From: Escherichia coli | GTDB lineage: Bacteria; Pseudomonadota; Gammaproteobacteria; Enterobacterales; Enterobacteriaceae | Assembly (NCBI RefSeq): GCF_044324785.1 | Contig: NZ_CP172127.1 | Length of the DNA stretch: 64,000 bases | Direction: 5' to 3' (one strand) | Program-made: the position numbers and the translations under genes | Shown: positions 19,682 to 64,000 of the stretch, piece after piece | How the letters are laid out: each line of letters begins with the position of its first letter | Position numbering within the stretch: position 1 is the stretch's first letter | The notes under the pieces: model-generated | The model's input: only the letters and a program-made list of their open reading frames with translations | Told to the model about the DNA's origin: nothing | Database searches by the model: none

Positions 19682-20722
19682 ATGAAAAAGACAGCTATCG
19701 CGATTGCAGTGGCACTGGCTGGTTTCGCTACCGTAGCGCAGGCCGCTCCGAAAGATAACACCTGGTACACTGGTGCTAAACTGGGCTGGTCCCAGTACCA
19801 TGACACTGGTTTCATCAACAACAATGGTCCGACCCATGAAAACCAACTGGGCGCTGGTGCTTTTGGTGGTTACCAGGTTAACCCGTATGTTGGCTTTGAA
19901 ATGGGTTATGACTGGTTAGGTCGTATGCCATACAAAGGCAGCGTTGAAAACGGTGCATATAAAGCTCAGGGCGTTCAGCTGACCGCTAAACTGGGTTACC
20001 CAATCACTGACGATCTGGACGTATACACTCGTCTGGGTGGTATGGTATGGCGTGCAGACACTAAATCCAACGTTTATGGTAAAAACCATGACACCGGCGT
20101 TTCTCCGGTCTTCGCTGGCGGTGTTGAGTATGCGATCACTCCTGAAATCGCTACCCGTCTGGAATACCAGTGGACCAACAACATCGGTGACGCACACACC
20201 ATCGGTACTCGTCCGGACAACGGCATGCTGAGCCTGGGTGTTTCCTACCGTTTCGGTCAGGGCGAAGCAGCTCCAGTAGTTGCTCCGGCTCCAGCTCCGG
20301 CACCGGAAGTACAGACCAAGCACTTCACTCTGAAGTCTGACGTTCTGTTCACCTTCAACAAAGCAACCCTGAAACCGGAAGGTCAGGCTGCTCTGGATCA
20401 GCTGTACAGCCAGCTGAGCAACCTGGATCCGAAAGACGGTTCCGTAGTTGTTCTGGGTTACACTGACCGCATCGGTTCTGACGCTTACAACCAGGGTCTG
20501 TCCGAGCGCCGTGCTCAGTCTGTTGTTGATTACCTGATCTCCAAAGGTATCCCGGCAGACAAGATCTCCGCACGTGGTATGGGCGAATCCAACCCGGTTA
20601 CTGGCAACACCTGTGACAACGTGAAACAGCGTGCTGCACTGATCGACTGCCTGGCTCCGGATCGTCGCGTAGAGATCGAAGTTAAAGGCATCAAAGACGT
20701 TGTAACTCAGCCGCAGGCTTAA
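19682..20722 (+). CDS. ompA: Outer membrane protein A
   Basis: Track ORF 19595..20722 trimmed to ATG 19682 ([36 protein letters not shown]...), 346 aa with APAPAPAP hinge and OmpA-C domain. Confidence 0.97.
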
Positions 20723-42222: not shown

Positions 42223-42798
42223 ATGCGTGTCATCACCCTGGCGGGTAGTCCTCGCTTTCCTTCTCGCTCCAGCTCCTTGCTGGAATATGCGCGGGAAAAA
42301 CTGAATGGCCTGGATGTAGAGGTTTATCACTGGAATCTGCAAAACTTCGCCCCGGAAGATCTACTTTATGCTCGTTTCGATAGTCCGGCACTCAAGACCT
42401 TCACCGAACAGCTGCAACAGGCTGATGGACTGATAGTCGCTACACCTGTGTATAAAGCCGCCTATTCCGGCGCGCTGAAAACCCTGCTCGACCTGCTGCC
42501 AGAGCGCGCTTTGCAAGGCAAAGTGGTGCTGCCGCTGGCGACAGGCGGCACGGTGGCTCATCTTTTGGCGGTCGATTATGCCCTTAAGCCAGTTTTAAGT
42601 GCGCTGAAAGCCCAGGAGATCCTGCACGGCGTGTTTGCCGATGACTCACAAGTAATTGATTACCACCACAAACCCCAGTTCACGCCAAATCTGCAAACCC
42701 GTCTTGATACCGCGCTGGAAACTTTCTGGCAGGCATTGCACCGTCGGGATGTTCAGGTTCCTGACCTTCTGTCTCTGCGAGGTAATGCCCATGCGTAA
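42223..42798 (+). CDS. ssuE: NADPH-dependent FMN reductase
   Basis: Track ORF 191 aa MRVITLAGSPRFPSRSSSLLEYAREKL... Confidence 0.93.
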   Translation: MRVITLAGSPRFPSRSSSLLEYAREKLNGLDVEVYHWNLQNFAPEDLLYARFDSPALKTFTEQLQQADGLIVATPVYKAAYSGALKTLLDLLPERALQGKVVLPLATGGTVAHLLAVDYALKPVLSALKAQEILHGVFADDSQVIDYHHKPQFTPNLQTRLDTALETFWQALHRRDVQVPDLLSLRGNAHA

Positions 42799-43750
42799 GA
42801 TCATTAAACTGGCGCTGGCGGGCTTACTTAGCGTCTCTACACTTGCTGTTGCCGCGGAGTCTTCGCCAGAGGCGTTACGGATTGGCTATCAGAAAAGCAA
42901 CATCAGTTCGGTGCTGGCGAAAAATTACCAAATGCTGGAAAAACGCTATCCGCAAACAAAAATCTTCTGGGTGGAGTTCCCGGCTGGCCCGCAGATGCTG
43001 GAGGCACTGAACGTCGGTAGTATCGATCTGGGTAGTACGGGAGATATTCCGCCAATCTTTGCTCAGGCCGCCGGGGCTGATTTGCTGTATGTGGGTGTCG
43101 AGCCACCGAAGCCAAAAGCCGAAGTGATTCTGGTGGCAGAAAATAGTCCGATCAAAACCGTAGCCGATCTTAAAGGTCACAAAGTTGCCTTTCAGAAAGG
43201 TTCCAGTTCACACAACCTTTTACTGCGTGCACTGCGTCAGGCCGGACTTAAGTTTACCGATATACAACCCACTTACCTGACACCCGCTGATGCCCGCGCC
43301 GCGTTCCAGCAAGGTAACGTTGACGCCTGGGCTATCTGGGATCCCTACTACTCCGCTGCATTATTACAGGGCGGCGTGCGGGTGCTGAAAGACGGCACCG
43401 ATCTCAATCAAACCGGATCGTTTTATCTGGCTGCCCGTCCGTATGCAGAAAAAAACGGCGCATTTATTCAGGGTGTACTGGCAACCTTTAGTGAGGCCGA
43501 TGCGTTAACCCGCAGCCAGCGCGAGCAAAGCATCGCCTTATTGGCAAAAACGATGGGCTTACCGGCCCCGGTGATTGCCTCGTATCTGGATCATCGCCCT
43601 CCCACCACCATCAAACCGGTTAACGCCGAAGTTGCCGCCTTACAGCAGCAAACGGCAGATCTGTTTTATGAAAACCGTCTGGTGCCGAAAAAAGTCGATA
43701 TTCGCCAGCGTATCTGGCAGCCCACTCAACTGGAAGGAAAACAATTATGA
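42791..43750 (+). CDS. ssuA: Aliphatic sulfonate ABC transporter periplasmic binding protein
   Basis: Track ORF 42656..43750 trimmed to ATG 42791 ([34 protein letters not shown]...), 319 aa; 8-nt overlap with ssuE. Confidence 0.92.
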
Positions 43751-49378: not shown

Positions 49379-50581
49379 ATGACACAATTCGCTTCTCCTG
49401 TTCTGCACTCGTTGCTGGATACAGATGCTTATAAGTTGCATATGCAGCAAGCCGTGTTTCATCACTATTACGATGTGCATGTCGCGGCGGAGTTTCGTTG
49501 CCGAGGTGACGATCTGCTGGGTATTTATGCCGATGCTATTCGTGAACAGGTTCAGGCGATGCAGCACCTGCGCCTGCAGGATGATGAATATCAATGGCTC
49601 TCTGCCCTGCCTTTCTTTAAGGCCGACTATCTTAACTGGCTACGCGAGTTCCGCTTTAACCCGGAACAAGTCACCGTGTCCAACGATAATGGCAAGCTGG
49701 ATATTCGTTTAAGCGGCCCGTGGCGTGAAGTCATCCTCTGGGAAGTTCCTTTGCTGGCGGTTATCAGTGAAATGGTACATCGCTATCGCTCACCGCAGGC
49801 CGACGTTGCGCAAGCCCTCGACACGCTGGAAAGCAAATTAGCCGACTTCTCGGCATTAACCGCCGGTCTTGATATGTCGCGCTTCCATCTGATGGATTTT
49901 GGCACCCGCCGACGTTTTTCTCGTGAAGTACAAGAAACCATCGTGAAACGTCTGCAACAGGAATCCTGGTTCGTGGGCACCAGCAACTACGATCTGGCGC
50001 GTCGGCTTTCCCTCACGCCAATGGGAACACAAGCACACGAATGGTTCCAGGCGCATCAGCAAATCAGTCCGGATCTTGCCAACAGCCAGCGAGCTGCACT
50101 TGCTGCCTGGCTGGAAGAATACCCCGACCAACTTGGCATTGCATTAACCGACTGCATCACTATGGATGCTTTCCTGCGTGATTTCGGTGTCGAGTTCGCC
50201 AGCCGCTATCAGGGCTTGCGTCATGACTCCGGCGACCCAGTTGAATGGGGTGAAAAAGCCATTGCACATTATGAGAAGCTGGGAATTGATCCACAGAGTA
50301 AAACGCTGGTTTTCTCTGACAATCTGGATTTACGCAAAGCGGTTGAGCTATACCGCCATTTCTCTTCCCGTGTGCAATTAAGTTTTGGTATTGGGACTCG
50401 CCTGACCTGCGATATCCCCCAGGTAAAACCCCTGAATATTGTCATTAAGTTGGTTGAGTGTAACGGTAAACCGGTGGCGAAACTTTCTGACAGCCCTGGC
50501 AAAACTATCTGCCACGATAAAGCGTTTGTTCGGGCGCTGCGCAAAGCGTTCGACCTTCCGCATATTAAAAAAGCCAGTTAA
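49379..50581 (+). CDS. pncB: Nicotinate phosphoribosyltransferase
   Basis: Track ORF 49331..50581 trimmed to ATG 49379 ([33 protein letters not shown]...), 400 aa. Confidence 0.94.
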
Positions 50582-50588
50582 TATCATC

Positions 50589-50615
50589 AGGGAGCTAATC
50601 GGCTCCCTTTTTTTA
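50589..50615 (+). terminator. Intrinsic terminator after pncB
   Basis: AGGGAGC/GCTCCCT stem with loop TAATCG followed by TTTTTTT. Confidence 0.8.
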
Positions 50616-50749
50616 CCTTTAATTCCGAAATCTTTCGCTGCATTTGCGAATTCTGCTTGTCTGATTGCAGATGCCAGGTAACATAGGTATCCCCCCATTT
50701 ACGGGTGGACAAGTGTTTATTTTTTCCGACTATTAACAGAGAGAATATT

Positions 50750-52150
50750 ATGAGCGTTGTGCCTGTAGCCGACGTACTCCAGGGCCGCGTAGCCGTTGAC
50801 AGCGAAGTCACCGTACGCGGATGGGTACGTACCCGCCGAGATTCAAAAGCTGGCATCTCCTTCCTCGCCGTTTATGACGGTTCCTGCTTTGATCCTGTAC
50901 AGGCTGTCATCAATAATTCTCTGCCCAATTACAATGAAGACGTCCTGCGTCTGACCACCGGTTGCTCGGTCATTGTGACGGGTAAAGTCGTGGCGTCGCC
51001 GGGCCAGGGGCAACAATTTGAAATTCAGGCCAGCAAGGTTGAAGTTGCTGGTTGGGTTGAAGATCCAGACACTTACCCGATGGCGGCAAAACGCCACAGC
51101 ATTGAGTATCTGCGTGAAGTCGCTCACCTGCGTCCGCGCACAAACCTGATTGGTGCCGTCGCGCGCGTTCGCCATACGCTGGCGCAGGCGCTGCATCGCT
51201 TCTTTAACGAGCAGGGATTCTTCTGGGTTTCAACGCCACTGATTACTGCGTCTGATACCGAAGGGGCTGGCGAAATGTTCCGCGTTTCTACGCTGGATCT
51301 GGAAAACCTGCCGCGTAACGATCAGGGCAAAGTGGATTTCGACAAAGACTTCTTTGGTAAAGAGTCTTTCCTGACCGTATCTGGCCAGTTGAACGGCGAA
51401 ACCTACGCTTGCGCATTATCCAAAATTTATACCTTCGGCCCGACTTTCCGTGCTGAAAACTCCAACACCAGCCGTCACCTGGCGGAATTCTGGATGCTGG
51501 AGCCGGAAGTGGCGTTTGCTAACCTGAACGATATCGCGGGTCTGGCTGAAGCCATGCTGAAATATGTCTTCAAAGCGGTTCTCGAAGAACGCGCTGACGA
51601 CATGAAATTCTTCGCTGAACGCGTAGATAAAGATGCCGTTTCACGTCTGGAACGCTTCATTGAAGCCGATTTTGCGCAGGTGGATTACACCGACGCAGTG
51701 ACCATTCTCGAAAACTGCGGCAGGAAGTTTGAAAACCCGGTTTACTGGGGCGTTGATCTCTCTTCTGAGCATGAGCGTTATCTGGCGGAAGAACACTTTA
51801 AAGCACCGGTAGTGGTTAAAAACTATCCGAAAGATATTAAAGCGTTCTATATGCGCCTTAACGAAGACGGTAAAACCGTTGCGGCTATGGACGTTCTGGC
51901 TCCGGGCATCGGTGAGATCATTGGTGGCTCCCAGCGTGAAGAACGTCTGGACGTGCTGGACGAGCGTATGCTGGAAATGGGCCTGAATAAAGAAGATTAC
52001 TGGTGGTATCGCGATCTGCGTCGCTACGGTACTGTTCCGCATTCAGGTTTCGGTCTTGGTTTTGAACGCCTGATTGCTTACGTAACTGGTGTGCAAAACG
52101 TGCGTGATGTGATTCCGTTCCCACGTACTCCGCGTAACGCCAGCTTCTAA
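50750..52150 (+). CDS. asnS: Asparaginyl-tRNA synthetase
   Basis: Track ORF 50705..52150 trimmed to ATG 50750 ([38 protein letters not shown]...), 466 aa, class II aaRS. Confidence 0.96.
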
Positions 52151-52164
52151 TTTAGCGTCTTCAA

Positions 52165-52191
52165 GAGCCAGCACCCGCTGGCTCTTTTTTT
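52165..52191 (+). terminator. Intrinsic terminator after asnS
   Basis: GAGCCAGC/GCTGGCTC perfect 8-bp stem, loop ACCC, then TTTTTTT. Confidence 0.85.
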
Positions 52192-52542
52192 ATCCTTTCT
52201 GTCAAGTTATCTGTTTGTTAAGTCAAGCAATCTATTTGCAACCCCGCCATAACGATCATCCTGTTACGGAATATTACACTGCAATATTTTCGCACAAAAA
52301 ATAATCCGCATTCTTATTGCGGATTAGTTTTTTCTTAGCTGATAGCACAATTTTCATACTATCTTTTGGCGTTCTGGATGTCTGAACGAGGATTTAGTGC
52401 CAGGTCGATAAAGTTTCCATCAGAAACAAAATTTCCGTTTAGTTAATTTAAATATAAGGAAATCATATAAATAGATAAATATTGCTGTAAATATCATCAC
52501 GCTTCTATGGAAATATGACGGTGTTCACAAAGTTCCTTAAAT

Positions 52543-52636
52543 TTTACTTTTGGTTACATATTTTTTCTTTTTGAAACCAAATCTTTATCTTTGTAGCACT
52601 TTCACGGTAGCGAAACGTTAGTTTGAATGGAAAGAT
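52543..52636 (+). promoter_or_regulatory. ompF promoter with tandem OmpR-binding sites F1-F3
   Basis: TTTACTTTTGGTTACATATTT / TTTTCTTTTTGAAACCAAATC / TTTATCTTTGTAGCACTTTC tandem 20-bp sites followed by AAAGAT -10 candidate; about 110-nt leader to the ATG. Confidence 0.75.
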
Positions 52637-52752
52637 GCCTGCAGACACATAAAGACACCAAACTCTCATCAATAGTTCCGTAAATTTTTATTGACAGAAC
52701 TTATTGACGGCAGTGGCAGGTGTCATAAAAAAAACCATGAGGGTAATAAATA

Positions 52753-53826
52753 ATGATGAAGCGCAATATTCTGGCAGTGATCGTCCCTGCTCTGTTAGTA
52801 GCAGGTACTGCAAACGCTGCAGAAATCTATAACAAAGATGGCAATAAAGTAGATCTGTACGGTAAAGCTGTCGGTCTGCATTATTTTTCTAAAGACAATG
52901 GTGTAAACAGTTACGGCGGAAACGGCGACAAAACTTATGCCCGTCTTGGTTTTAAAGGGGAAACACAAATCAATTCCGATCTGACCGGCTACGGTCAGTG
53001 GGAATATAACTTCCAGGGTAACAACTCTGAAGGCGCTGATGCCCAGAAAGGTAACAAAACTCGTCTGGCATTCGCAGGTCTGAAATTCGCTGATGCGGGT
53101 TCTATCGACTACGGTCGTAACTACGGTGTGGTTTACGACGCACTGGGTTACACCGATATGCTGCCTGAGTTTGGCGGTGACACGGCATACAGCGATGACT
53201 TCTTCGTTGGTCGTGTAGGCGGCGTTGCTACCTATCGTAACTCCAACTTCTTCGGTCTGGTTGACGGCCTGAACTTTGCCGTTCAGTACCTGGGCAAAAA
53301 CGAACGTGCTGGTATTCCTGAGCGTTCCAACGGCGACGGCGTCGGTGGCTCTATCAGCTACGAATTCGAAGGCTTTGGTATCGTAGGTGCTTACGGTGCA
53401 GCAGACCGTACCGACGCCCAGGAAGCCGAATTCCGCGGTCAGGGTAAAAAAGCTGAACAGTGGGCAACTGGTCTGAAGTATGACGCGAACAACATCTACC
53501 TGGCAGCGAACTACGGTGAAACCCGTAACGCTACGCCAATTGAAGGCGGCTTCGCCAACAAAACGCAAGACGTTCTGTTAGTTGCGCAATACCAGTTCGA
53601 TTTCGGTCTGCGTCCGTCCATCGCTTACACCAAATCTAAAGCGAAAGACGTAGAAGGTATCGGTGATGTTGATCTGGTGAACTACTTTGAAGTGGGCGCA
53701 ACCTACTACTTCAACAAAAACATGTCCACCTATGTTGACTACATCATCAACCAGATCGATTCTGACAACAAACTGGGCGTAGGTTCTGACGACACCGTTG
53801 CTGTGGGTATCGTTTACCAGTTCTAA
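52753..53826 (+). CDS. ompF: Outer membrane porin F (variant allele, 357 aa)
   Basis: Track [41 protein letters not shown]...VGIVYQF; general-porin fold with terminal aromatic residue; loops differ from the K-12 allele. Confidence 0.95.
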
Positions 53827-53851
53827 TAGCACACCTCTTTGTTAAATGCCG

Positions 53852-53881
53852 AAAAAACAGGACTTTGGTCCTGTTTTTTTT
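53852..53881 (+). terminator. Intrinsic terminator after ompF
   Basis: AAAAAACAGGACTTTGGTCCTGTTTTTTTT: 6-bp stem flanked by A-run and T-run. Confidence 0.85.
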
Positions 53882-54010
53882 ATGCCTTCCAGAGCAATCT
53901 CACGTCTTGCAAAAACAGCCTGCGTTTTCATCAGTAATAGTTGGAATTTTGTAAATCTCCCGTTACCCTGATAGCGGACTTCCCTTCTGTAACCATAATG
54001 GAACCTCGTC

Positions 54011-55201
54011 ATGTTTGAGAACATTACCGCCGCTCCTGCCGACCCGATTCTGGGCCTGGCCGATCTGTTTCGTGCCGATGAACGTCCCGGCAAAATTAAC
54101 CTCGGGATTGGTGTCTATAAAGATGAGACGGGCAAAACCCCGGTACTGACCAGCGTGAAAAAGGCTGAACAGTATTTGCTCGAAAATGAAACCACCAAAA
54201 ATTACCTCGGCATTGACGGCATCCCTGAATTTGGTCGCTGCACTCAGGAACTGCTGTTTGGTAAAGGTAGCGCCCTGATCAATGACAAACGTGCTCGCAC
54301 GGCACAGACTCCGGGTGGCACTGGCGCACTACGCGTGGCTGCCGATTTCCTGGCAAAAAATACCAGCGTTAAGCGTGTGTGGGTGAGCAACCCAAGCTGG
54401 CCGAACCATAAGAGCGTCTTTAACTCTGCAGGTCTGGAAGTTCGTGAATACGCTTATTATGATGCGGAAAATCACACCCTTGACTTCGATGCACTGATTA
54501 ACAGCCTGAACGAAGCTCAGGCTGGCGACGTAGTGCTGTTCCATGGCTGCTGCCATAACCCAACCGGTATCGACCCTACGCTGGAACAATGGCAGACACT
54601 GGCACAACTTTCCGTTGAGAAAGGCTGGTTACCGCTGTTTGACTTCGCTTACCAGGGTTTTGCCCGTGGTCTGGAAGAAGATGCTGAAGGACTGCGCGCT
54701 TTCGCGGCTATGCATAAAGAGCTGATTGTTGCCAGTTCCTACTCTAAAAACTTTGGCCTGTACAACGAGCGTGTTGGCGCTTGTACTCTGGTTGCTGCCG
54801 ACAGTGAAACCGTTGATCGCGCATTCAGCCAAATGAAAGCGGCGATTCGCGCTAACTACTCTAACCCACCAGCACACGGCGCTTCTGTTGTTGCCACCAT
54901 CCTGAGCAACGATGCATTACGTGCGATTTGGGAACAAGAGCTGACTGATATGCGCCAGCGTATTCAGCGTATGCGTCAGTTGTTCGTCAATACGCTGCAG
55001 GAAAAAGGCGCAAACCGCGACTTCAGCTTTATCATCAAACAGAACGGCATGTTCTCCTTCAGTGGCCTGACAAAAGAACAAGTGCTGCGTCTGCGCGAAG
55101 AGTTTGGCGTGTATGCTGTTGCTTCTGGTCGCGTAAACGTGGCCGGGATGACACCAGATAATATGGCTCCGCTGTGCGAAGCGATTGTGGCAGTGCTGTA
55201 A
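54011..55201 (+). CDS. aspC: Aspartate aminotransferase
   Basis: Track ORF 396 aa [46 protein letters not shown]...; PLP-lysine region [14 protein letters not shown]. Confidence 0.97.
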
Positions 55202-55216
55202 GCGTTAAAAACAATG

Positions 55217-55245
55217 AAGCCCGCTTGAAAAGCGGGCTTTTTTAT
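55217..55245 (+). terminator. Intrinsic terminator after aspC
   Basis: AAGCCCGCTT-GAAA-AGCGGGCTT hairpin followed by TTTTTAT; sits 7 bp from the ycbL stop on the other strand. Confidence 0.85.
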
Positions 55246-55251
55246 GCGCTT

Positions 55252-55899
55252 TTACCAGACGGGCATTTCGTCTTGCAGGAAGGGATTATGCAGGCGCTCA
55301 TAACCAAGTGTGGATAATGGTCCGTGACCCGGAATAAATGTCACGTCATCCCCCAGTGGCAGCAACTTATCTTTGATTGAAGAAATCAGTTGATTATGAT
55401 CGCCACGCGGGAAGTCACTGCGCCCTACTCCGCCTTTGAAAATAACGTCGCCAGAAATCAGCAGCTTTGCCCGATCATCAAAAAACACGACATGACCCGG
55501 CGTATGCCCAGGGCAATGTAACACCTGTAAAGCCACATTCCCTATGCTGATGGTATCGCCTTCGTTCAGCCAACGATCCGGCGTCAGCGGCTGGCACTCT
55601 TCCAGACCAAACATACGACTTTGCGCAGGCAAGCCTTGCAGCCAGAACTCATCTTCTTTTTCCGGGCCAAAAACCGGCACGCCGTAATGTTGCGCCAGTT
55701 CCGCCGCTGCACCAACGTGGTCCAGATGACCATGCGTCAGCAGGATCTGCATCAGTGTCAGGCCGCTGGCGTCAACTTCCTGTTTGATTTTTTCCGCATC
55801 GCCGCCAGGATCGACCAGTGCGGCCAGGCGGGTTTGTTCACACCAGATCAATGAACAGTTCTGGGAGAATGCGGTGACCGGAATAATACGATAGTTCAT
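55252..55899 (-). CDS. ycbL: Metallo-beta-lactamase fold hydrolase (glyoxalase II-like)
   Basis: Track ORF 215 aa [38 protein letters not shown]... with THGHLDH metal-binding motif. Confidence 0.9.
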
Positions 55900-55925
55900 A
55901 CTGCCCCTGTTTCGTTAAGCAATTG

Positions 55926-56474
55926 CTACCAGTGCCGTGCTGGCCCGGTATCAATATGCACAAAGTTACTACGTGGGTAATATCCTACACCACCTGCGCG
56001 CATAGATAACGCGGCTTTGCGAATATTGCTTAACGCGATACCTTCAATATGGAAATCCATCGCCTGCCCTTTCGTGTGATAGCTTTTCTTCGCTACTCCA
56101 CGGCTGCGGGCGCGTAGTTCATTGTTGGTATCAATGGAACGATAACCGGAAATGAGTTGCACCGGTTTGCGGGTGCCTAATAACCCTTGCAGGCGATACA
56201 ACTGATCGAACAATCCTGGGTCGATGGACTTTATTTTGTTCGCGCGGTAATCGCGGAAAAAATGGTTAAGTTTTGCCAATTCTTCCTGAATATAGCCTCT
56301 GCCATCGAAAAACTCCGCTTTGATTGACTCTCCGGTATGAAGATTATTGAGTGTCAAAATGCGCGGGCGTGGGGTAGAGAGTGTTGCAAACGCAGGGGTC
56401 GGCAGGATGGCGGCACCGAGTGCAACGCCACCAAGCGCCAGCAATTTGCGGCGATTAGCGTCGAATTTGTCCAT
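55926..56474 (-). CDS. mepK: Peptidoglycan L,D-endopeptidase (peptidase M15 family), Tat-exported
   Basis: Track ORF 55926..56483 trimmed to ATG 56474 (MDKFDANRRKLLALGGVALGAAILPTPAFA...), 182 aa; twin-arginine-like RRKLL signal. Confidence 0.85.
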   Translation of the reverse strand: MDKFDANRRKLLALGGVALGAAILPTPAFATLSTPRPRILTLNNLHTGESIKAEFFDGRGYIQEELAKLNHFFRDYRANKIKSIDPGLFDQLYRLQGLLGTRKPVQLISGYRSIDTNNELRARSRGVAKKSYHTKGQAMDFHIEGIALSNIRKAALSMRAGGVGYYPRSNFVHIDTGPARHW

Positions 56475-56654
56475 GATAATCAAGTCTACAGGTCAATGTT
56501 ATCGTTTATATGCACTTCTGGCGCACAAGAGGCACCTTAACCGCCCGTAAAGCAGACGTCAAGATGACTCAACCCCAGCAGTGACGGGGGCTGCAGAGAA
56601 TCGCCCCCGATCATGCTAATTATTACGACAACTGATTTCCCCGAACTGCTTCAT

Positions 56655-58502
56655 TTACCTGATTAATTGTTCCGCTTTCGATACGATTTGCGAGCTGGAT
56701 CGCGCAGGCAGATCATAATTGTAAATATCTGTACGATACTGGGTACGACCATCTGCACCAACAAATGCCGTCAGGTAGTAGAGATTTACCGGAATCGACT
56801 GCCGAATATTGACGTAACGCGTATCGCCCTGCTTCAGCGCATCAGAAATACGTTTGTCATTCCAGCCTGCATCCTGCAACAGCATATTCGCCAGATCGGA
56901 AGCTTTATTCACTCGTACACAGCCTGAGCTCAATGCGCGTGTATCACGCTTGAACAGATTGTGGTTCGGCGTGTCATGCAAATAAATGGCCTCTGAACTC
57001 GGCATATTGAATTTATAGCGCCCCAGCGAGTTCCGTGGGCCTGGAGCCTGCTGGAAGCGGAACGGTAAATTCGAGGCCGTGATTGTAGACCAGTCAACCT
57101 GCCATGGGTCAATCGCTTCTCTGCTGTTCCAGCCGCGCATCACCGTATAGCCATGGCTTTCGAGATATCCCGGATCGTTGCGCACTTTCGGCAGAATATC
57201 TTTGCGTGCCAGAGTTGGGGGTACGTTCCACGGCGGGTTTACCACTACGTTGTTAAGTGCACTGCTCATCATCGGCGTTTTGCGATCGGGGCGACCAACA
57301 ATGACTCGCGAATCCAGCACCTGATTGCCGTTCTGATAGTAGACCAGCGAATAGGCCGGAATGTTAACCATGATCCCGGTAGAAAGCTCTGTTGGCAGCA
57401 AGCGCAATCGCTGGATGTTGAGTGCCAACACGCCAGCACGCTGGGCGGGCGTTACGTTTAACCAGTCACGCGTTGCCGGGCCAATAGCGCCATCTGCTCC
57501 CAATCCTTGCCATGCCTGAAAACGTTTAACGGCTTCCACCAGTTCATTATCGTAGGCGGCACGAACGGCAGGCGCAGGTTTACTACGAGACGTCGTTTGC
57601 TTGTCCATCGGCTTAGTTTCTGCTGTTTCAACAGTAACAGCGGATGGGCTGACTACTGCGTCAGTTGGCGTGTCATCGCCAGGGAGAGTAATTTTTGGCC
57701 CCCCGTCCAACATGCCTGTGCGTTGCAATATTTCGCGCAACGCCGGTACGTCGTTACTCCACTGCCCTGGGCGCAACGTTGCTTTACCGGTCAGTTGAGG
57801 CCACGGTTTGGTGTCACTGAGTAAGGCCAGTAACGATTCATGCATCGCCGCATATTGCGGATGCTGCGGTGCCAGTCCTGCAACAAACGTCGGCAATTGA
57901 CCTTTATCCAGCGTCAGCTGCCATTGGTTAATCACCGAAAGCGGCGGCGTTGCAAGCGCATAAGGTTTACTGCTATATAGCCAGCGAGTGCCTTTGACCG
58001 GAATATTTGCAATGAAATGGAGATAGCCCATCATCGCATCAGAGAGCACGACGTCGCGTGCCATCCCGTTAACACCAGGATCGGTCAGTAACTCTACCCA
58101 TTTATTAAACTGCGGCTGGAAACCGGCAATCGCCACCTCTGCCAGCTGTTGCTGGAAGGCTTTAACAGCATCACGGTTTTCCCACATGGGTTGCATATCG
58201 CGTGCGGCATACAACAGTTGAAGCTGGTTAAGATAAACCGGCTTGTAACCTGCGGGTAATTGAGATTCGATTTGCGTGCGGGCTTTTTCTGCCGCACCTT
58301 CAGGCAATGGCTGGATCCCCGCCATTATTGCCGTGGCTTGCGCCTGCGGCAGTGCCTCGCCCTGTTCACTGACAGCCACCGGGCTGTCGCCAGGGATTAC
58401 TTCAGGCTCATCGGCCTGCGCATTGAACAGTGGAGCGAATGTTACGGCCAGGCACAAACTGATTGCCGACAGCCGACGACCACACATCATATTAAGCAAC
58501 AT
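56655..58502 (-). CDS. ldtD: L,D-transpeptidase (3-3 peptidoglycan cross-linking)
   Basis: Track ORF 615 aa [30 protein letters not shown]...; C-terminal YkuD-type domain with catalytic ...LSSGCVRV... Confidence 0.9.
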
Positions 58503-58762
58503 CCCTTGCCCCCTGTTTTTATCATACTCTGAATAGCCAGGCTGTTATTTTACGACTTGCCTGTACAACGCCAATACTCACGAAAGTATGACGAGCAAGC
58601 CTGTTACTCATCAGGCTTATCTTCAGTATATAAACGCCGATACGTTTTTACATAACCTAATGTAAAGAAGTTTAAAGAAAAGCGCGCCGTAATGTGCCAC
58701 TTTTTTAGTGCAGAAACGGAGTTTTCGGAAAAAGAAAAGGCGGCATTGCTGCCGCCTTCATT

Positions 58763-61700
58763 TTAACTCGCCTGGGAAGGCGCTTCGTCACTTCCTGGAA
58801 GCGTTTCAGGGAGTTGCGGCGCAAATCCTCGCAGGCCGACGACGTGAACGTGTTCGGTATTCTGGAAGACTTTACGTACCAGTTTATAGGTGGTGCCTTT
58901 TTCCGGACTGATATTTTCCGGCGCTGCGATGATGAGCTGCATTTGCAAACGTTCACACAATTCAAACAGCGTGGCGATAGAACGAGCATCCAGTCGCGCT
59001 GCTTCATCGAGGAACAGCAGGCGGCAAGGAGAGATATCTTTACCGCGCAGGCGGCGAGATTCATCTTCCCAGCTTTGTACCACCATCACCAGAATCGACA
59101 TACCGGTACCAATCGCCTCACCGGTCGACAATGCACCAGACTCTGCACGCAACCAGCCATCAGAACCACGGTTAACCTCAACTTCCATTTCCAGATAGTT
59201 GCGGTAATCCAGCAGTTCTTCGCCAATGGTCTGCGGCGTGCGCTGCCCCATATCAATCTGCGGATTAAGACGCTGATACAATTTCGCCAGTGCTTCTGAG
59301 AAGGTCAGACGGTTGCTGTTAAACAGATCCTGATGCTGCTCGTGCTGTTCAGAGAGCACATCCAGCAGCATGGCGTGCGTTTCACGCACGTTCACGTTCA
59401 GACGTACGCTGTTCACCTGACCAAACGATACGTTCTGCAACCCCTGGTTGAGCATACGGATACGGTTCTGTTCGCGCTGAATGGTTTTGCGAATAATGTT
59501 CGCCACGCTGCGGGAACTGATCGCCAGTTTCTGTTCACGGGAGGTTAACTCTTCGGTCAAACGGCTAAGTTCGATCTCCATCTGTTCGATAGCTTCCACC
59601 GGATCATCGGTACGAATAATATCCTGACGAATACGTTCACGCAGATGCTGATAAACCGCCACGAAGAACTGAATTTTACGTTCCGGACGTTTTGGATCTT
59701 CCGACATCCGCAGCACGTCGCGCAGATGTTCGTTATCCGCCACCGCCAGACGCAGCGCACCTAACGCCTTATCCGACATGGAACGCAAATCATCAGCGGA
59801 GAGATAAGCCAGCTCACGACGGTGTAAGCGACGCTCAACGCCGTTATCTTTCACCATGCGCATGACTGCACACCAGCCCGCTTTCGCGGTCACTACCTGC
59901 TCGCGCATCTCAAAGTAATCACGCTCCAGCTTGCGTAGTTTGCGGGTCAGATTGTCCATCTCCGCTTCGCAGAAGGTAAGCGCTTTTTCCAGTTGATTGC
60001 GGCGGGACCGGTTATTGCTCAGCTGCGCATGCAACTCGTCACGGCGAATACGCGCCCGCTCTTCTGCCCCGCTATCAGCACGCACGCCGATATCCTGCAA
60101 TTCACGTTGCAGATCGTTGAGTAGCTCTTTTTTGGTGTCGTAAGAACTTTTCAGCGAAGCCAGCACCTGGTTGTACTGACTCAACTGCGCTGCGTGACCG
60201 CGCAACGCTTCGCGAGCGCGGGTACGCTCCGCTTCCGCCTGTTCCAGACGTTCACGCAGTTTTTCGTTGAGATCGCTGTTACCGCTAAGCATTTCTGCCG
60301 AGTCAGAATAGCTAAAGTGCGCACGACGCTGCACCACTTCCGTCAGGGCAAACGCCTGCTGACGGGCATCGCGCTGCATCTGCTGAGAGTACGCGTAATC
60401 TTCTTTTAACTGTTCGAACTGTTCCGGGTCGCTCTGCAATACCGAAACGATCGGTTCCAGTTTCGCCAGTTGATTACCGAACTGCTGAACAAAACGCGCG
60501 GCTTCCTGGGCTTCATCCAGACGTTCGCGGATTTCCTCGACGCGATCCGCCAGGCTGTCATCAGCCAACAGGTTGAGACGCGGCAGAATGCGGTTCAGCG
60601 CCGTAACGCCTTCTTTCGCCTGCTCAAACTGAATGCGCTGCTGCTGGTTATCATTTTCATGATTACTCAACGCCCGCTCCAGTTCGACGCGACGGCTGTT
60701 CAGTTGACGGATTTCTGCTTCCGGGTCAGACTCAAACGCCACCGCCAGATGACTACCGATAAAGCGGCTGAACGCCTGATGCAGACGCTGGGTTTTCTGT
60801 ACATCAAAGGAGAGCGTGGCGAAGCGTTCGGAAAGCACTTCACGCTCAGCATGGAGACTTTCAATACGGCTTTCACGCGCAGCACGACCAAACAGCGGCA
60901 CTTCCGGGAAACGTGAATAACGCCACTGACGATCGGCGATTTTCACCACCACCGCTTTTTCCAGCTCATCAACGCTGAACACGCTGTCATCGAATGACTG
61001 CGGATCCCCTTCGATCAAATAGAGATCTTCCGGGCAATCGCTCAAGCCTTCCAGGTGTTCGGTTACCTGTGACAGATCTGGCACCACGATGGCGTGGCGT
61101 GACGGGCCATACAGCGCCGAGAAGTACGGCGCATCCTCCAGGCTAACGTCGTCATAAATTTCTGACAGCAGCACACCACCAAAACGCTCCGCCAGTGCGT
61201 TCAGACGCTGATCTTCAGAGCCGCCAGGCTGGCTTAAACGTTCGATCTCTTCATCGACAGCGTTTTTGCGCGCGCCCACTTCATCGCGTTCAACAATGGC
61301 TTCGCGCTCACGCTCCAGCAGCTGTTGCAGATATTCGGTGACGTCCTGGCTGGAGGAGAACTCTTCGCCGCACTGTTCACTCAACTGGTTGAGACTGTTT
61401 TGCGCTGCCAGCCAAACCGGTGCACGCTGCATCAAACTCTGAATGCGAGACTGCAGCTGTTCCTGCTCCTGGCGCAGTGCCATACGCTCTTCGCGGGCGT
61501 TAGACACGCTATCGGAAAGAGAGGCAATACGCGCTTCCAGCTCCTGATGCAGGGCTTCCAGTTCGTCGATATCAAAATTCTTGCCCTGACGTTTGCAGAA
61601 ATCTGCCAGCAGGCGTTCGGCTTCTTGCTGTTCGCGCAGACGCTGTTCCAGTTCGCTTAAGCGCATCCGCAACGGCTGAACCTGCTCTGCCAGGTGACGC

Positions 61701-63223
61701 TGATCGACCCCTTCGCGCAATAGTTCGCGAGCGACATCCCACGCCTCGTTACGCGCCAGCGGGCCGTTGATTGCCACCACCAGCTGATAAGCCTGCTCAA
61801 ACTGGCTGTGCGCGGTTTGCGCCATGCTCATTTTCTGCTCAAGAGAGAGCATTTTTTCAGTCGCTTCCAGCTCTTTCGCCTGGAAGGTTTCCAGCCATTC
61901 GGCGGCGCTGTCGGCGGTTAAGTCCGGCAGATGGCACAGTTCTTTGGCACGATTAAGCGCAGCAATCGCCTGGTTATACTGGATCGCGCGCGTTTGCTGG
62001 ACGTCCAGCGCCTGCTGGTAGTCAGCAAGCTGGCTTTTCAGCTCGTCCACTTCCAGTTCGGCAGCTTCCGCACGAGCCTCATTCTCTTCCTGGCGTTCGA
62101 TGGCTTCTGCCACCACTTCATTTTGCTCTTCCAGACGGATCTGCAGCTCATCGAGATCCGCTTCGTAGCGTTCGATCTTCTCCTGCTGACGCAGTGCGGT
62201 TTGCACCAGGTTCAGGTGATCGCTGGCCGCCTGATAATCCGCTTCCAGATCGCCTTCGGCACCGTTGTGCTCTGCCAGCTCACGCGCCATATCGACGTGT
62301 TTGTACTGCTCCGCCGCCAGTTGCTGACGCGAAGTATGTAGTTCGCGACGAAACTCCAGGGCCTTATCGAGATGGACACGGCGCTCGTTGGCGTGACGCA
62401 TGTAGTCCGCCGCCACGTAGTTGGTGGCTTCGCTGATCAGATGCTTAAACAGGTCGCGGTCCGACTGGGTGACACGAATCGCTTCCAGCGTCATGCGGTT
62501 TTCGCGCAGCGCCGCTTCCATGTCCTGGAACGCTTTCCGCACGCCGCTGTTTTCCGGCAACAGGTAGTCGCGCAGAGAGCGCGTAATGGCGCTGGAGATC
62601 CCGCCGTACAGCGAAGCTTCGATCAGACGATAGAATTTGCTACGGTCAGATGCGGAGCGCAGACGACGCGCGATGATGCCCAGATCGAACATCAGCGAGT
62701 GGTAATCGGTAATGGAGTTGAACTGCTTAAACTGCACGCCTTCCATCGCCTCGAGCTTGTCTTTCAGCTCGTTCAGCGGCAGTACACGCGCCTGGCGTTC
62801 GTTCAGAGTTTCGGTCACCAACTGCGTCGGCTGCACCGACATCGGCAGTCCCTGAATGGCAAATGGTTTGATATCCACTTTACGATCGCGTCCGGCAACC
62901 TGTTGCAGACGCACACCGACCACCACGCGCTGGTGGCGCGAGTTAATGGTGTCGAGCATCGAATAACAGACACCCGCTTTCAGCTTACCGTGCAGACCTT
63001 TATCGCGCGAACCGCTGGTGGCCCCGGCTTCCGTAGTGTTACGGAAGTGCAGCAGGGTCAGGTCGGGGATCAGCGCCGTAACGAACGCCGCCATGGTGGT
63101 GGATTTACCCGCCCCGTTACCGCCGGAGAGCGTCGTAACCAGCTCATCGAGGTCAAAAGTTCGGGCAAAAAAGCCGTTCCAGTTAATCAGCGTCAGTGAG
63201 CGAAATTTACCGCGTTCAATCAT
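58763..63223 (-). CDS. mukB: Chromosome partition protein MukB (SMC-like condensin)
   Basis: Track ORF 1486 aa [47 protein letters not shown]... with long coiled-coil arms. Confidence 0.97.
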
Positions 63224-63927
63224 TATTCTTCCTCTCCGCTATCTGGCTGATTCTCTTCGGTTTCATCGTTGAGTTGCAGATGATTTTCAATCGGCATTGC
63301 TTCGCCATCACGAATCAGGCGACGCTGTGCTTCACGGGGATCGTCGCCAGCACGCACATCGGCTCCGAAGCGGAACACCGATTCGGTAATGCGGAACTTG
63401 CTGCTGTCGTGGCCCATAAACCACACCATACCCAAACGACGCAGACGGTTGAGCGAAGAACGTACTTTTTCCTGCAACTTCTGGCGGTCAACGTCTGAAC
63501 CGGTTGAACGGTTGTTCACCAGTTTCAGCAGTTTCGCTTCATCGGCCAGGGTGAGCAGTTCGTCGTACAGTTCCTGCTGGGTGAAAATCCCCTCGTTCGC
63601 CAGCCGTTCCGGGCTGAGATAGAGATAACAGAGGATTTTCCCGACCATCATATCCAGTTCCGACAAGACGGAACGAGGGATCAGCGTGGTGGAACGTGGG
63701 CGTAAATAGAAGAACCCTTCTGGTGCGCGAATAAGCTCAACGTTATAACGCGCGTAAAACTCTTCCAGATATTCCTGAAAATCCATCAGGAATGCATGAT
63801 TATCCAGTTCGTCGAGGCCAATATGGCGGCCTGAACGTAAGGCGCTGTCCAGCGCCGGAAATAACGGATTCGCCAGCGCCTGCGCCAGCTTAACCGGCAT
63901 CACTTGTTCAATATTTGTCGATGACAT
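63223..63927 (-). CDS. mukE: Chromosome partition protein MukE
   Basis: Track ORF 63223..63954 trimmed to ATG 63927 ([38 protein letters not shown]...), 234 aa; start set by N-terminus recall. Confidence 0.88.
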
Positions 63928-64000
63928 GCGCCTGTACCTTGGCTCCGTAATCATTAATCGGCTGCCATTTCGCTGGCAGTCCGGTGAAATCTGCTTGCGC
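63908..64000 (-). CDS. mukF: Chromosome partition protein MukF, C-terminal 30 codons (gene continues beyond window end)
   Basis: Minus-strand frame ending ...[30 protein letters not shown] then TGA at 63908-63910; overlaps mukE start by 20 nt. Confidence 0.8.

Follow-up and report, generated by a model that had tools for sequence, protein, structure and literature searches.

Escherichia coli OmpF forms trimeric, weakly cation-selective diffusion pores, and its expression is under the control of OmpR and micF. It is a main entry route for beta-lactams and quinolones, and T-even-like phages, phage K20 and several colicins use it as a receptor or translocator. In the 64,000-nt stretch of E. coli DNA analysed here (the window), ompF encodes a protein that departs from its K-12 counterpart mainly in surface loops, which raises the question of how such a pattern has arisen. 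An earlier note on this DNA saw in it the signature of diversifying selection restricted to the loops. The reading to which we give most weight (roughly 85% probability) is a different one: a functional ompF of the allele class of strains IAI39, SMS-3-5 and CE10, mosaic in structure, with an old block that has been moved by recombination.

The ompF locus and its product

The source of the window is E. coli strain N3, in line with the non-K-12 lineage suspected earlier. K-12, IAI39 and others share the gene order pncB-asnS-ompF-aspC-gloC with the window (Table 1), and the OmpF product is identical to RefSeq WP_000977905.1, annotated as porin OmpF. In phmmer comparisons the protein scored 719 bits (E = 7.8e-216) against OmpF of PDB 3HW9, and less against the paralogues PhoE (440 bits) and OmpC (approximately 392 bits). 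The Pfam family PF00267 (Porin_1) is precomputed for a protein one residue away from it (P0021). The length of 357 aa, the usual signal peptide and the VGIVYQF end previously reported agree with the open reading frame and the alignment, and the 362 aa given for K-12 OmpF is found both in NC_000913.3 and in PDB 3HW9. The C-terminus includes the terminal aromatic residue for outer-membrane assembly. An AlphaFold model predicts 16 strands and a 29-residue L3, and superposes on solved OmpF with TM 0.91/0.96 and an rmsd of 1.3 Å.

The flanking genes had been called ordinary and indeed have a dN of 0 against K-12, both for asnS and for aspC. Positions 52601-52800, including 152 nt upstream of the ompF start codon, hold zero differences from K-12. 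An Rfam scan of positions 50000-56000 returned zero matches, and promoter-like matches around ompF did not rise above those in shuffled controls. The window ompF is an intact natural variant in the normal asnS-ompF-aspC position, and its product should work normally as a trimeric general-diffusion porin.

Table 1. Features of the ompF region of E. coli strain N3; positions are those of the window and residues follow mature K-12 numbering.
Feature	Position	Strand	Basis or remark
asnS, upstream neighbour	50750..52150	+	protein identical to K-12; DNA 0.14% from IAI39
Terminator-like hairpin after asnS	52163..52186	+	
ompF CDS	52753..53826	+	357 codons and stop, ATG start; ORF list, phmmer, RefSeq annotation of strain N3
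Signal peptide, 22 residues, identical to K-12	52753..52818	+	alignment to K-12 precursor; mature PDB chains begin at residue 23
Private synonymous C-to-T of strain N3 against all other carriers examined	52845	+	N3 vs IAI39: dN = 0, one synonymous difference
Divergent block (mosaic segment)	52872..53545	+	limits are the first and last allele-class differences; sliding windows
L1 coding region and top of strand 2 (G26D, E29V, M38K)	52891..52932	+	topology, alignment
L2 codon, T77K	53047..53049	+	topology, alignment
Turn T2 on the periplasmic side, with the strand ends next to it (Y90F, V93A, F96I)	53086..53106	+	topology; residues match outgroups
Constriction loop L3, 7 synonymous differences, no amino acid change	53125..53211	+	dS 0.47, dN 0
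L4, one residue longer than in K-12, including charge reversal R167E	53293..53337	+	
Y182F, periplasmic end of strand 8	53365..53367	+	
L5, six substitutions	53407..53448	+	
L6, short (ancestral) form without the K-12 TNKFTN insertion	53527..53559	+	
3' portion of ompF, coding for strands 12-16, L7 and L8; differs from K-12 at a single synonymous site	53546..53826	+	dS 0.016, dN 0
aspC, downstream neighbour	54011..55201	+	protein identical to K-12

Differences from the K-12 protein

Of the 363 columns in the alignment of the window and K-12 proteins 336 are identical, and the remainder comprise 20 substitutions, a one-residue insertion in L4 and a six-residue gap in L6. In mature K-12 numbering, the substitutions are G26D, E29V, M38K, T77K, Y90F, V93A, F96I, D164G, T165I, A166P, R167E, Y182F, N198D, L199A, Q203E, P204F, L205R, N207Q, T247E and S248G. 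All five pairs of window and K-12 peptides quoted in the earlier note turned out to be exact; its list of differing blocks was right as far as it went, but T77K and Y182F had been overlooked.

When the loop boundaries are taken from the AlphaFold model, 15 of the 20 substitutions fall in the surface loops L1, L2, L4, L5 and L6 (81 surface-loop residues in total) and five in the remaining 253 residues, so that the changes are not spread evenly along the protein (odds ratio for loops 11.3, Fisher p = 1e-6). The proposed clustering in loops thus stands for these 15 positions, but not for the four on the periplasmic side, and a 12-residue block previously regarded as an external loop is in fact the turn that joins strands 4 and 5 on the periplasmic side. 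Variable sites are limited to L1, L2, the T2 turn, L4, T4, L5 and L6. The window protein has the same locus, fold, signal peptide, L3, L7, L8 and C-terminus as K-12 OmpF (b0929; PDB 2OMF, 1OPF, 3HW9), and its pore-lining residues are also unchanged; it differs in the longer L4 with R167E, the six changes in L5, the L6 without TNKFTN and the four periplasmic-side residues. The constriction charges K16, R42, R82 and R132, which face D113 and E117, are not among the 20 changed positions, nor is either member of the L2 latch pair E71 to R100.

A divergent block within ompF

At the nucleotide level the differences form a 674-bp block spanning strands 1-11 and loops L1-L6, with 86 substitutions, an insertion of 3 nt and a gap of 18 nt relative to K-12 (approximately 88% identity by BLAST; 11.8% substitutions). 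Positions 52801-53600 hold about 107 differences from K-12, compared with 0-1 per 200 bp on either side. The density of differences sets the block apart both from the remainder of ompF (Fisher p = 5e-16) and from asnS and aspC together (p = 9e-39). The window ompF is a mosaic, in which the first approximately 120 nt and the last approximately 280 nt are ordinary E. coli sequence and the internal block is a highly divergent haplotype of much greater age.

The majority of the substitutions in the block are synonymous. Its dS against K-12-type alleles is 0.39-0.54, whereas the values for asnS, aspC and the ompF tail are 0.047, 0.040 and 0.016, respectively; the dS between E. coli and E. albertii, 0.40-0.54, is similar to that of the block. 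Divergence along the block is uneven, ranging from 7% to 18%, with peaks at L1 (11-14%) and L4-L5 (16-18%) and lower values in between. The dN/dS ratio is 0.11 over the whole block, and in pairwise comparison 0.16 for loops and 0.05 for strands. The dS is 1.08 in loop codons and 0.35 in strand codons, the loop value being unreliable due to multiple hits and the alignment of indels.

These numbers bear directly on the idea that the loops of ompF in this lineage acquired new point mutations under recent diversifying selection. Replacement changes are indeed concentrated in loops, as noted above, and, relative to synonymous changes, they are more frequent there than elsewhere in the block (odds ratio 5.5, p = 0.001). 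On the other hand, synonymous changes occur in 51 codons, including those of the strands and L3, the dS of the block (about 0.5) is ten times that of the flanks, and several of the window states are ancestral (see below). In addition, the identical block is present in hundreds of genomes of other backgrounds. The supposed signature of diversifying selection is therefore half right: the amino acid changes are concentrated in the loops, but an excess of replacements was not seen, since even in the pairwise comparison of loops, with an N:S ratio 5.5 times that elsewhere in the block, dN/dS is as low as 0.16. Instead of loop-restricted point changes, we find a block of mostly synonymous substitutions with near-identical sequence on both sides, and recent mutation of the loops in this lineage is very improbable.

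Distribution among E. coli and spread by recombination

The same block was found in 486 of 5,426 complete genomes (approximately 9%), among them IAI39, SMS-3-5 and CE10. It is 0.00% divergent among seven carriers (IAI39 and six others), from which N3 is one base apart. The pepN, ldtD and mukB flanks of the same carriers are up to 3.3% apart and represent at least three backgrounds, as judged from flanks of approximately 10 kb in eight genomes. N3 itself matches IAI39 solely over approximately 50.25-54.5 kb of the window. Homologous recombination has moved the block between lineages, with the result that it is found in unrelated chromosomal backgrounds, N3 among them.

Homologous recombination also carries sub-segments such as L1 from one E. 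coli lineage to another. In all, 754 genomes contain the L1 segment, compared with 486-488 for the whole block or for L4-L6, and about 270 other genomes thus have the L1 part without the rest. Such mosaic L1-only alleles were seen directly in strains 67-1 and 730V1, whose protein WP_000977907.1 shares the L1 segment of the window (0.8-1.7% DNA divergence up to approximately position 52990); unlike the window protein, it is K-12-type from L2 on and, at 362 aa, includes the long L6. L5 and L6 occur in several forms across E. coli alleles. Sampling of the 90-99% identity bands also brought up strain 02E060, which carries an unrelated K-12-type allele with a 4-aa deletion in L6.

Polymorphism of porin loops and mosaic recombination in E. 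coli ompF have already been published. OmpF is listed among the E. coli porins with mosaic evolution, and five hypervariable regions and five groups are distinguished, one of the groups being CE10 (bioRxiv 10.1101/2021.09.21.461324; PMC12175518). The regions correspond to L1, a periplasmic turn, L4, L5 and L6, and they are described there as shuffled by local recombination (bioRxiv 10.1101/2021.09.21.461324; PMC12175518). The second of them (HVR2) lies on the inner, non-extracellular face, for which the paper uses the term 'cytoplasmic interfaces' (bioRxiv 10.1101/2021.09.21.461324). Strain CE10 carries the window block at 99.9% identity, and the published pattern of hypervariable regions matches the window. 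A small number of hypervariable regions and local recombination that sets the gene tree at odds with the strain background, two of the marks of mosaic evolution according to Wang and co-workers, are both present in the window ompF. For another mark, positive selection on the hypervariable regions, the values observed are the loop dN/dS of 0.16 and the 5.5-fold N:S ratio given above. The K-12 loop sequences quoted in the earlier note are correct. The allele is a common one that has been described before: a real but ordinary mosaic ompF, and a textbook case of porin mosaic evolution. The portions of the CE10-group papers available to us work mainly at the protein level and do not give the synonymous divergence, the limits of the block or the finding that the short L6 is ancestral. 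What is modestly new here is quantitative, namely the exact limits of the block, the ten-fold synonymous excess, the almost complete lack of diversity in the class and the derived nature of the K-12 L6 insertion shown below.

Comparable cases are found in other porins. The exchange of E. coli ompC (the ST38/phylogroup D allele) likewise involves a porin allele with different loops spread by homologous recombination (PMC6970295), although the gene is a different one and reduced beta-lactam permeability was shown there experimentally, an effect not known for the window ompF allele. As for ompF, the same paper covers inactivation and promoter mutations only (PMC6970295). In the available sections of the studies on Yersinia ompF (PMC3105102) and Neisseria porB (PMC10327514), conserved strands, variable loops and intragenic recombination are reported from these other genera.

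Ancestral and derived states

In the outgroup alignment, the short L6 is present in E. albertii, a cryptic Escherichia, Citrobacter and Superficieibacter. Since the outgroups share the short form, it is K-12 that carries a derived 6-aa insertion, and L6 of the window, which had been described as shortened, has not lost anything relative to them. The residues F90, A93 and I96 of the periplasmic turn are in part also shared by outgroup ompF genes. By outgroup comparison, then, the short L6 and the periplasmic-turn residues of the window are the ancestral states and those of K-12 the derived ones.

Where did the block come from?

Gene conversion from a paralogous porin (ompC, phoE, ompN or nmpC) is one conceivable source of the block, and public data do contain hybrid porins in which OmpF follows an OmpC-like or PhoE-like N-terminus. 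The whole protein, however, is far closer to OmpF than to PhoE or OmpC in bit score, secondary BLAST matches on ompC cover 5-19% of the queries, and the short L6 and, in part, F90, A93 and I96 are shared with outgroup ompF. Conversion from ompC or phoE was rejected because OmpF orthologues resemble the block much more than the paralogues do, and the chance that any paralogue made it is negligible.

A scan of species representatives for a donor listed matches from E. albertii and one cryptic Escherichia, as well as from many further genera, none of them near the block; the ompF loci of E. fergusonii, E. marmotae and E. ruysiae were not among the matches listed. The L4-L6 fragment, used as a protein query, matched partial proteins alone and gave nothing informative. 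The full-length protein search brought up a Dryocola OmpF with L4 NERAGIPTRSNGDG, of the same length and with the same AGIP motif as L4 of the window, and an ENA contig with a similar 12-residue L1. As donors both were rejected, their DNA being 18-25% divergent in these segments (21-25% in Dryocola). In L4-L5, the DNA of the block differs by 16.6-20.9% from all Escherichia and Citrobacter alleles compared, while the Escherichia alleles are 5.5-14.5% apart from one another in the same segment.

Two accounts of these distances may be considered. According to the first, the block introgressed from a related species outside the sample, either within Escherichia, cryptic clades included, or among more distant enterobacteria, and then spread among E. 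coli lineages. Diversity within the class is near zero despite the very deep divergence from other classes, and in the strand regions dS (0.35) is comparable to that between E. coli and either E. albertii or the cryptic Escherichia SCPM-O-B-8794. That L4-L5 is equally far from Escherichia and Citrobacter, and that an L4 of the same length with the AGIP motif exists in Dryocola, also speak for an import. Against it, no donor was found: the nearest non-E. coli L4-L5 DNA among the matches listed is that of Citrobacter youngae (84.9%), the Dryocola DNA is too divergent, and the 15 listed of 544 protein-cluster members are all named E. coli. Moreover, the uneven divergence along the block is unexpected from a single import out of one genome. 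Introgression is a credible origin, to which we assign somewhat less than an even chance.

According to the second account, the block is an old balanced polymorphism within Escherichia, kept by frequency-dependent selection on the loops while recombination eroded the linkage around them; only the neighbourhood of the selected loops would then stay deeply divergent. The peaks of divergence at L1 and L4-L5, the higher dS in loop codons than in strand codons, the independent recombination of modules such as L1 and the several forms of L5 and L6 among E. coli alleles are all consistent with this. Classes older than the species and neutral divergence that peaks at the selected sites, as expected of a balanced polymorphism, are seen here as well (dS of approximately 0.5 versus 0.04). 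Arguing the other way, the class is absent from the one E. albertii and the one cryptic-clade genome examined, the loop dS is unreliable as stated above, and the virtual lack of diversity within the class is more in keeping with a recent arrival, even if quick coalescence is also expected of a rare class. Long-term balancing within the genus is possible, but we put it forward only tentatively.

The block, and chiefly its L4-L5 part, might also be a relic older than the diversification of Escherichia, that is, a surface type shared across genera or an import from an unsampled enterobacterium. This is a speculative proposal, with the odds somewhat against it; if it were true, few polymorphisms of E. 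coli would be older than its ompF allele classes, and the K-12 reference would be the derived form.

Selection on the loops

A loop bias would also result if purifying selection had simply been weaker on the exposed loops during a long period of divergence, without any adaptive maintenance of the alleles. The dN/dS values stay below 1 throughout, and the same loops vary freely among genera. Such relaxation leaves unexplained, however, why an old haplotype persists at approximately 9% while neighbouring genes coalesce ten times more recently, and why the reshuffling of modules has yielded a limited number of types. Relaxed constraint by itself could be the cause of the loop bias, but we consider this rather unlikely. 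The allele classes are probably maintained by frequency-dependent selection exerted by phages, colicins, toxins and antibodies, in combination with relaxed constraint on the loops.

Functional and practical implications

The surfaces of L1, L4, L5 and L6 are binding places of phages, colicins, contact-dependent inhibition toxins and antibodies. Altered surfaces of these loops would change which agents dock on the cell, and the receptor specificity of the window OmpF may accordingly differ from that of K-12, with phages, colicins and immunity as the putative selective agents. The changed loops include regions reported to contact phage K20 (L5-L7; Traurig and Misra 1999, as cited in PMC12032242 and bioRxiv 10.1101/2021.09.21.461324).

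A change in permeability had also been suggested. Because L3 and the constriction residues are identical to those of K-12, a large effect of this kind is not indicated. R167E and the neighbouring changes in L4, located near the vestibule arginine cluster, are the sole candidates that could affect permeability; R167E might modestly shift the electrostatics of the vestibule (for the structural context of R167, see PMC12578334).

About one in 11 complete E. coli genomes thus have L1, L4, L5 and L6 surfaces unlike those of the K-12 protein, on which almost all structural and phage work has been done. This is of relevance to the prediction of host range in phage therapy, to OmpF-directed vaccines or nanobodies and to models of permeability.

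Elsewhere in the window, the remark that ompA also departs from K-12 agrees with the substitutions I114V and N224T relative to K-12 OmpA.

The ompF gene and its product

The ompF open reading frame (ORF) of the window is intact and lies between asnS and aspC, as in K-12 and all the other E. coli compared. Strain N3 (NZ_CP031609.1), isolated from a human rectal swab, is 100% identical to the window, and its ompF is annotated as porin OmpF (WP_000977905.1). The product matches the solved K-12 OmpF at 719 bits (E = 7.8e-216), PhoE at 440 bits and OmpC at ~392 bits. AlphaFold predicts 16 strands and a long L3 (mean pLDDT 81), and the model fits K-12 OmpF structures at TM 0.91/0.96 and 1.3 A rmsd. 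The signal peptide, L3, the constriction charges and the C-terminal assembly signal are unchanged compared to K-12, the barrel is likewise conserved, and the L2 latch residues checked (E71 and R100) are kept. There is also no difference from K-12 in 52601-52800, which takes in 152 nt 5' of the start codon.

Features of the window discussed in the text
Feature	Coordinates	Strand	Remarks
ompA	19682-20722	+	346-aa OmpA
asnS	50750-52150		5' neighbour of ompF
ompF	52753-53826	+	357 codons, intact; from ORF list
Divergent block	52872-53545		674 bp, 86 substitutions and two indels; limits set by differences common to all carriers
aspC	54011-55201		3' neighbour of ompF

The asnS-ompF spacer contains a perfect 9-bp-stem hairpin (52302-52326) flanked by T-runs on both strands, which falls in 52201-52400, the stretch 5' of ompF with most differences between N3 and K-12. 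The aspC-gloC spacer (55202-55251) is 50 bp in N3 versus 221 bp with two REP-like palindromes in K-12, and the longer K-12 spacer accounts for the 180 "differences" in this bin of the comparison. This is ordinary REP/BIME presence-absence polymorphism; the long spacer is present in strains 67-1, ETEC4085 and 730V1.

Protein differences from K-12

In a codon by codon alignment to ompF of NC_000913.3, 20 substitutions separate window OmpF from K-12, along with one extra residue in L4 and a gap of six residues in L6. With loop limits taken from the AlphaFold model, surface loops L1, L2, L4, L5 and L6 hold 15 of the substitutions; M38K maps to strand 2, at its outer end, and Y90F, V93A, F96I and Y182F (mature K-12 numbering) are in periplasmic turns or adjoining strand ends. 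L3, L7, L8 and all positions beyond mature residue 248 are without amino acid change. An earlier note had proposed that the differences cluster in external loops and that loops be compared with the rest; change is indeed concentrated there (15/81 loop residues versus 5/253 others, odds ratio 11.3, p = 1e-6). The five peptide pairs that it quoted are all exact, but T77K and Y182F were overlooked and one quoted block is periplasmic. This periplasmic block agrees with the second hypervariable region placed on the inner (non-extracellular) face of OmpF (bioRxiv 10.1101/2021.09.21.461324).

Papers on mosaic evolution describe five hypervariable regions in OmpF, four extracellular and one on the inner face; TMHMM assigns the extracellular ones to L1, L3, L4 and L5, other passages name L5 and L6, and five major OmpF groups are defined, one exemplified by CE10 (bioRxiv 10.1101/2021.09.21.461324; PMC12175518). 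According to the same preprint, ompF was flagged as positively selected in earlier genome scans (Chen 2006, Petersen 2007, via bioRxiv 10.1101/2021.09.21.461324). The window allele, common, annotated and already described, thus belongs to a known class, and the evolutionary regime is known as well. The present additions are all quantitative: block limits, dS contrast, within-class uniformity and ancestral polarity.

An old block in a gene of ordinary age

At the DNA level, about 107 differences from K-12 fall in 52801-53600; the adjoining DNA, to which the final ~280 nt of ompF belong, has 0-1 per 200 bp on both sides. The divergent block differs in density from the remainder of ompF (p = 5e-16) and from asnS and aspC together (p = 9e-39). 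Synonymous changes affect 51 codons, across strands and L3 as well as loops. Between the window and K-12, dS (Nei-Gojobori) is 0.49 in the block (dN 0.052); for asnS, aspC and the ompF tail the values are 0.047, 0.040 and 0.016. Between K-12 and E. albertii, dS is 0.54 in the same block, 0.40 in asnS and 0.51 in aspC. By this measure, the block has the age of a species split, and the gene and surroundings that hold it have the age usual within a species.

Within the block, strands and turns have a dN/dS of 0.05 and surface loops one of 0.16; for L3 it is 0. The ratio of replacement to silent changes is 5.5 times higher in loops (p = 0.001), and the loops are less constrained than the remainder; at a pairwise dN/dS of 0.16 they show no excess of replacement over silent changes. 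A second high-divergence patch, towards ssuE/elfA (42400-43200), has 17-36 differences per 200-250 bp from both K-12 and IAI39.

Spread among E. coli

Among 5,426 complete E. coli genomes, 486 have the block at no less than 99% identity, and nearly all others (4,922) are 80-90% identical to it, making the distribution bimodal. Carriers include IAI39, SMS-3-5 and CE10, which serve as references for phylogroup F (the former D2). The seven carriers compared all encode WP_000977905.1 with 0.00% divergence within the block; the one base that sets N3 apart from them, at 52845, is synonymous. In the pepN, ldtD and mukB flanks, six carriers cluster (0-1.7% apart), while 0.8-3.3% separates C1 and N3 from this cluster and from each other; the part of the window in which N3 is close to IAI39 is limited to about 50.25-54.5 kb. 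The L1-encoding 5' part of the block occurs in 754 genomes and the L4-L6 part in 488, and strains 67-1 and 730V1 (WP_000977907.1) have the window-type L1 segment followed by K-12-type sequence from about 52990 onward. Identical blocks in discordant flanks, and the L1 segment without the rest, mean that the block and its modules pass between E. coli lineages by homologous recombination. For ompC, a porin allele has been shown to spread by recombination and to affect phenotype (PMC6970295).

The mepK-ldtD-mukBEF region (56000-64000) is found at 99% identity or above in one of the 5,426 genomes, N3 itself (next best 98.5%), which suggests that N3 belongs to a lineage seldom sampled. The human blood isolate elppa9 has the same ompF allele class as a frameshifted pseudogene (L088:3001-4078), in line with what is known of clinical strains, in which OmpF is often lost. 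In strain 02E060 (L090:2914-3990), a K-12-type ompF of 358 aa has an independent 4-residue L6 deletion; the length of L6 therefore varies recurrently.

Polarity and origin of the block

Window OmpF was aligned with E. albertii, cryptic Escherichia SCPM-O-B-8794, several Citrobacter and Superficieibacter. The short L6, previously taken as "shortened", is the general state among these outgroups, and it is the K-12-type alleles that have gained six residues (TNKFTN). F90, A93, I96 and F182 are shared with some outgroups singly or jointly, all four only with SCPM-O-B-8794, so K-12 is derived there, as at L6. The aligned outgroups lack both the window L4 (AGIPE), longer by one residue, and the window L1 (D..V..K). 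The L4 of Dryocola OmpF (NERAGIPTRSNGDG) is strikingly similar to that of the window; a DNA divergence of 21-25% rules out Dryocola as donor, and the likeness is due to ancient common descent or to convergence.

The depth of divergence is uneven along the block. In the L1 segment, the window allele lies outside a tight group of K-12, cryptic Escherichia and E. albertii. In L4-L5, it is 16.6-20.9% from every compared Escherichia and Citrobacter allele, Escherichia alleles being 5.5-14.5% apart, and the closest non-E. coli DNA among the matches listed, Citrobacter youngae, reaches only 84.9%. A database-wide protein search with window OmpF retrieved its own cluster, in which 544 proteins are grouped and all 15 entries listed bear the name E. 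coli; no nearer relative turned up outside it. The near-zero diversity within the allele class fits introgression of the block from an unsampled relative, for which we estimate a probability of roughly 0.4. The divergence peaks at L1 and L4-L5, together with the independent shuffling of modules, fit an old balanced polymorphism eroded by recombination, an origin that we regard as possible, if slightly less likely.

Predicted function

Window OmpF is predicted to form a normal trimeric diffusion pore, its difference from K-12 falling on the outer face. L5 and L6, with L7, are reportedly required for binding of phage K20 (Traurig and Misra 1999, via PMC12032242 and bioRxiv 10.1101/2021.09.21.461324), and T2-like phages are described as using OmpF as receptor through Gp38 (PMC12032242), so the altered L1/L4/L5/L6 surface should affect recognition of the cell by phages, colicins and antibodies. 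Judged from its sequence, the constriction does not suggest a permeability effect. One possible exception is R167 of L4, described as part of the arginine cluster around D121, D126 and D127 (PMC12578334); its replacement by glutamate could slightly shift vestibule electrostatics. In the earlier interpretation of diversifying selection on the loops, the loop bias holds and the link to surface recognition is plausible, but point mutation of loops in this lineage is the wrong mechanism: an old recombining block is involved, and some of the "changes" arose on the K-12 side.

Other porin observations

Public assemblies contain hybrid porins (P0029, P0042, P0051, P0056, P0104 and P0117) with an OmpC-like or PhoE-like N-terminal third and OmpF C-terminal two-thirds, one of them with the loops of the window allele; these could be assembly chimeras or real paralogue recombination. 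The OmpA substitutions pointed out earlier (DLDVYTRL and VLFTFNK) match I114V and N224T (precursor numbering) relative to K-12 OmpA. Allelic variation of ompA is well known (PMC9560509).
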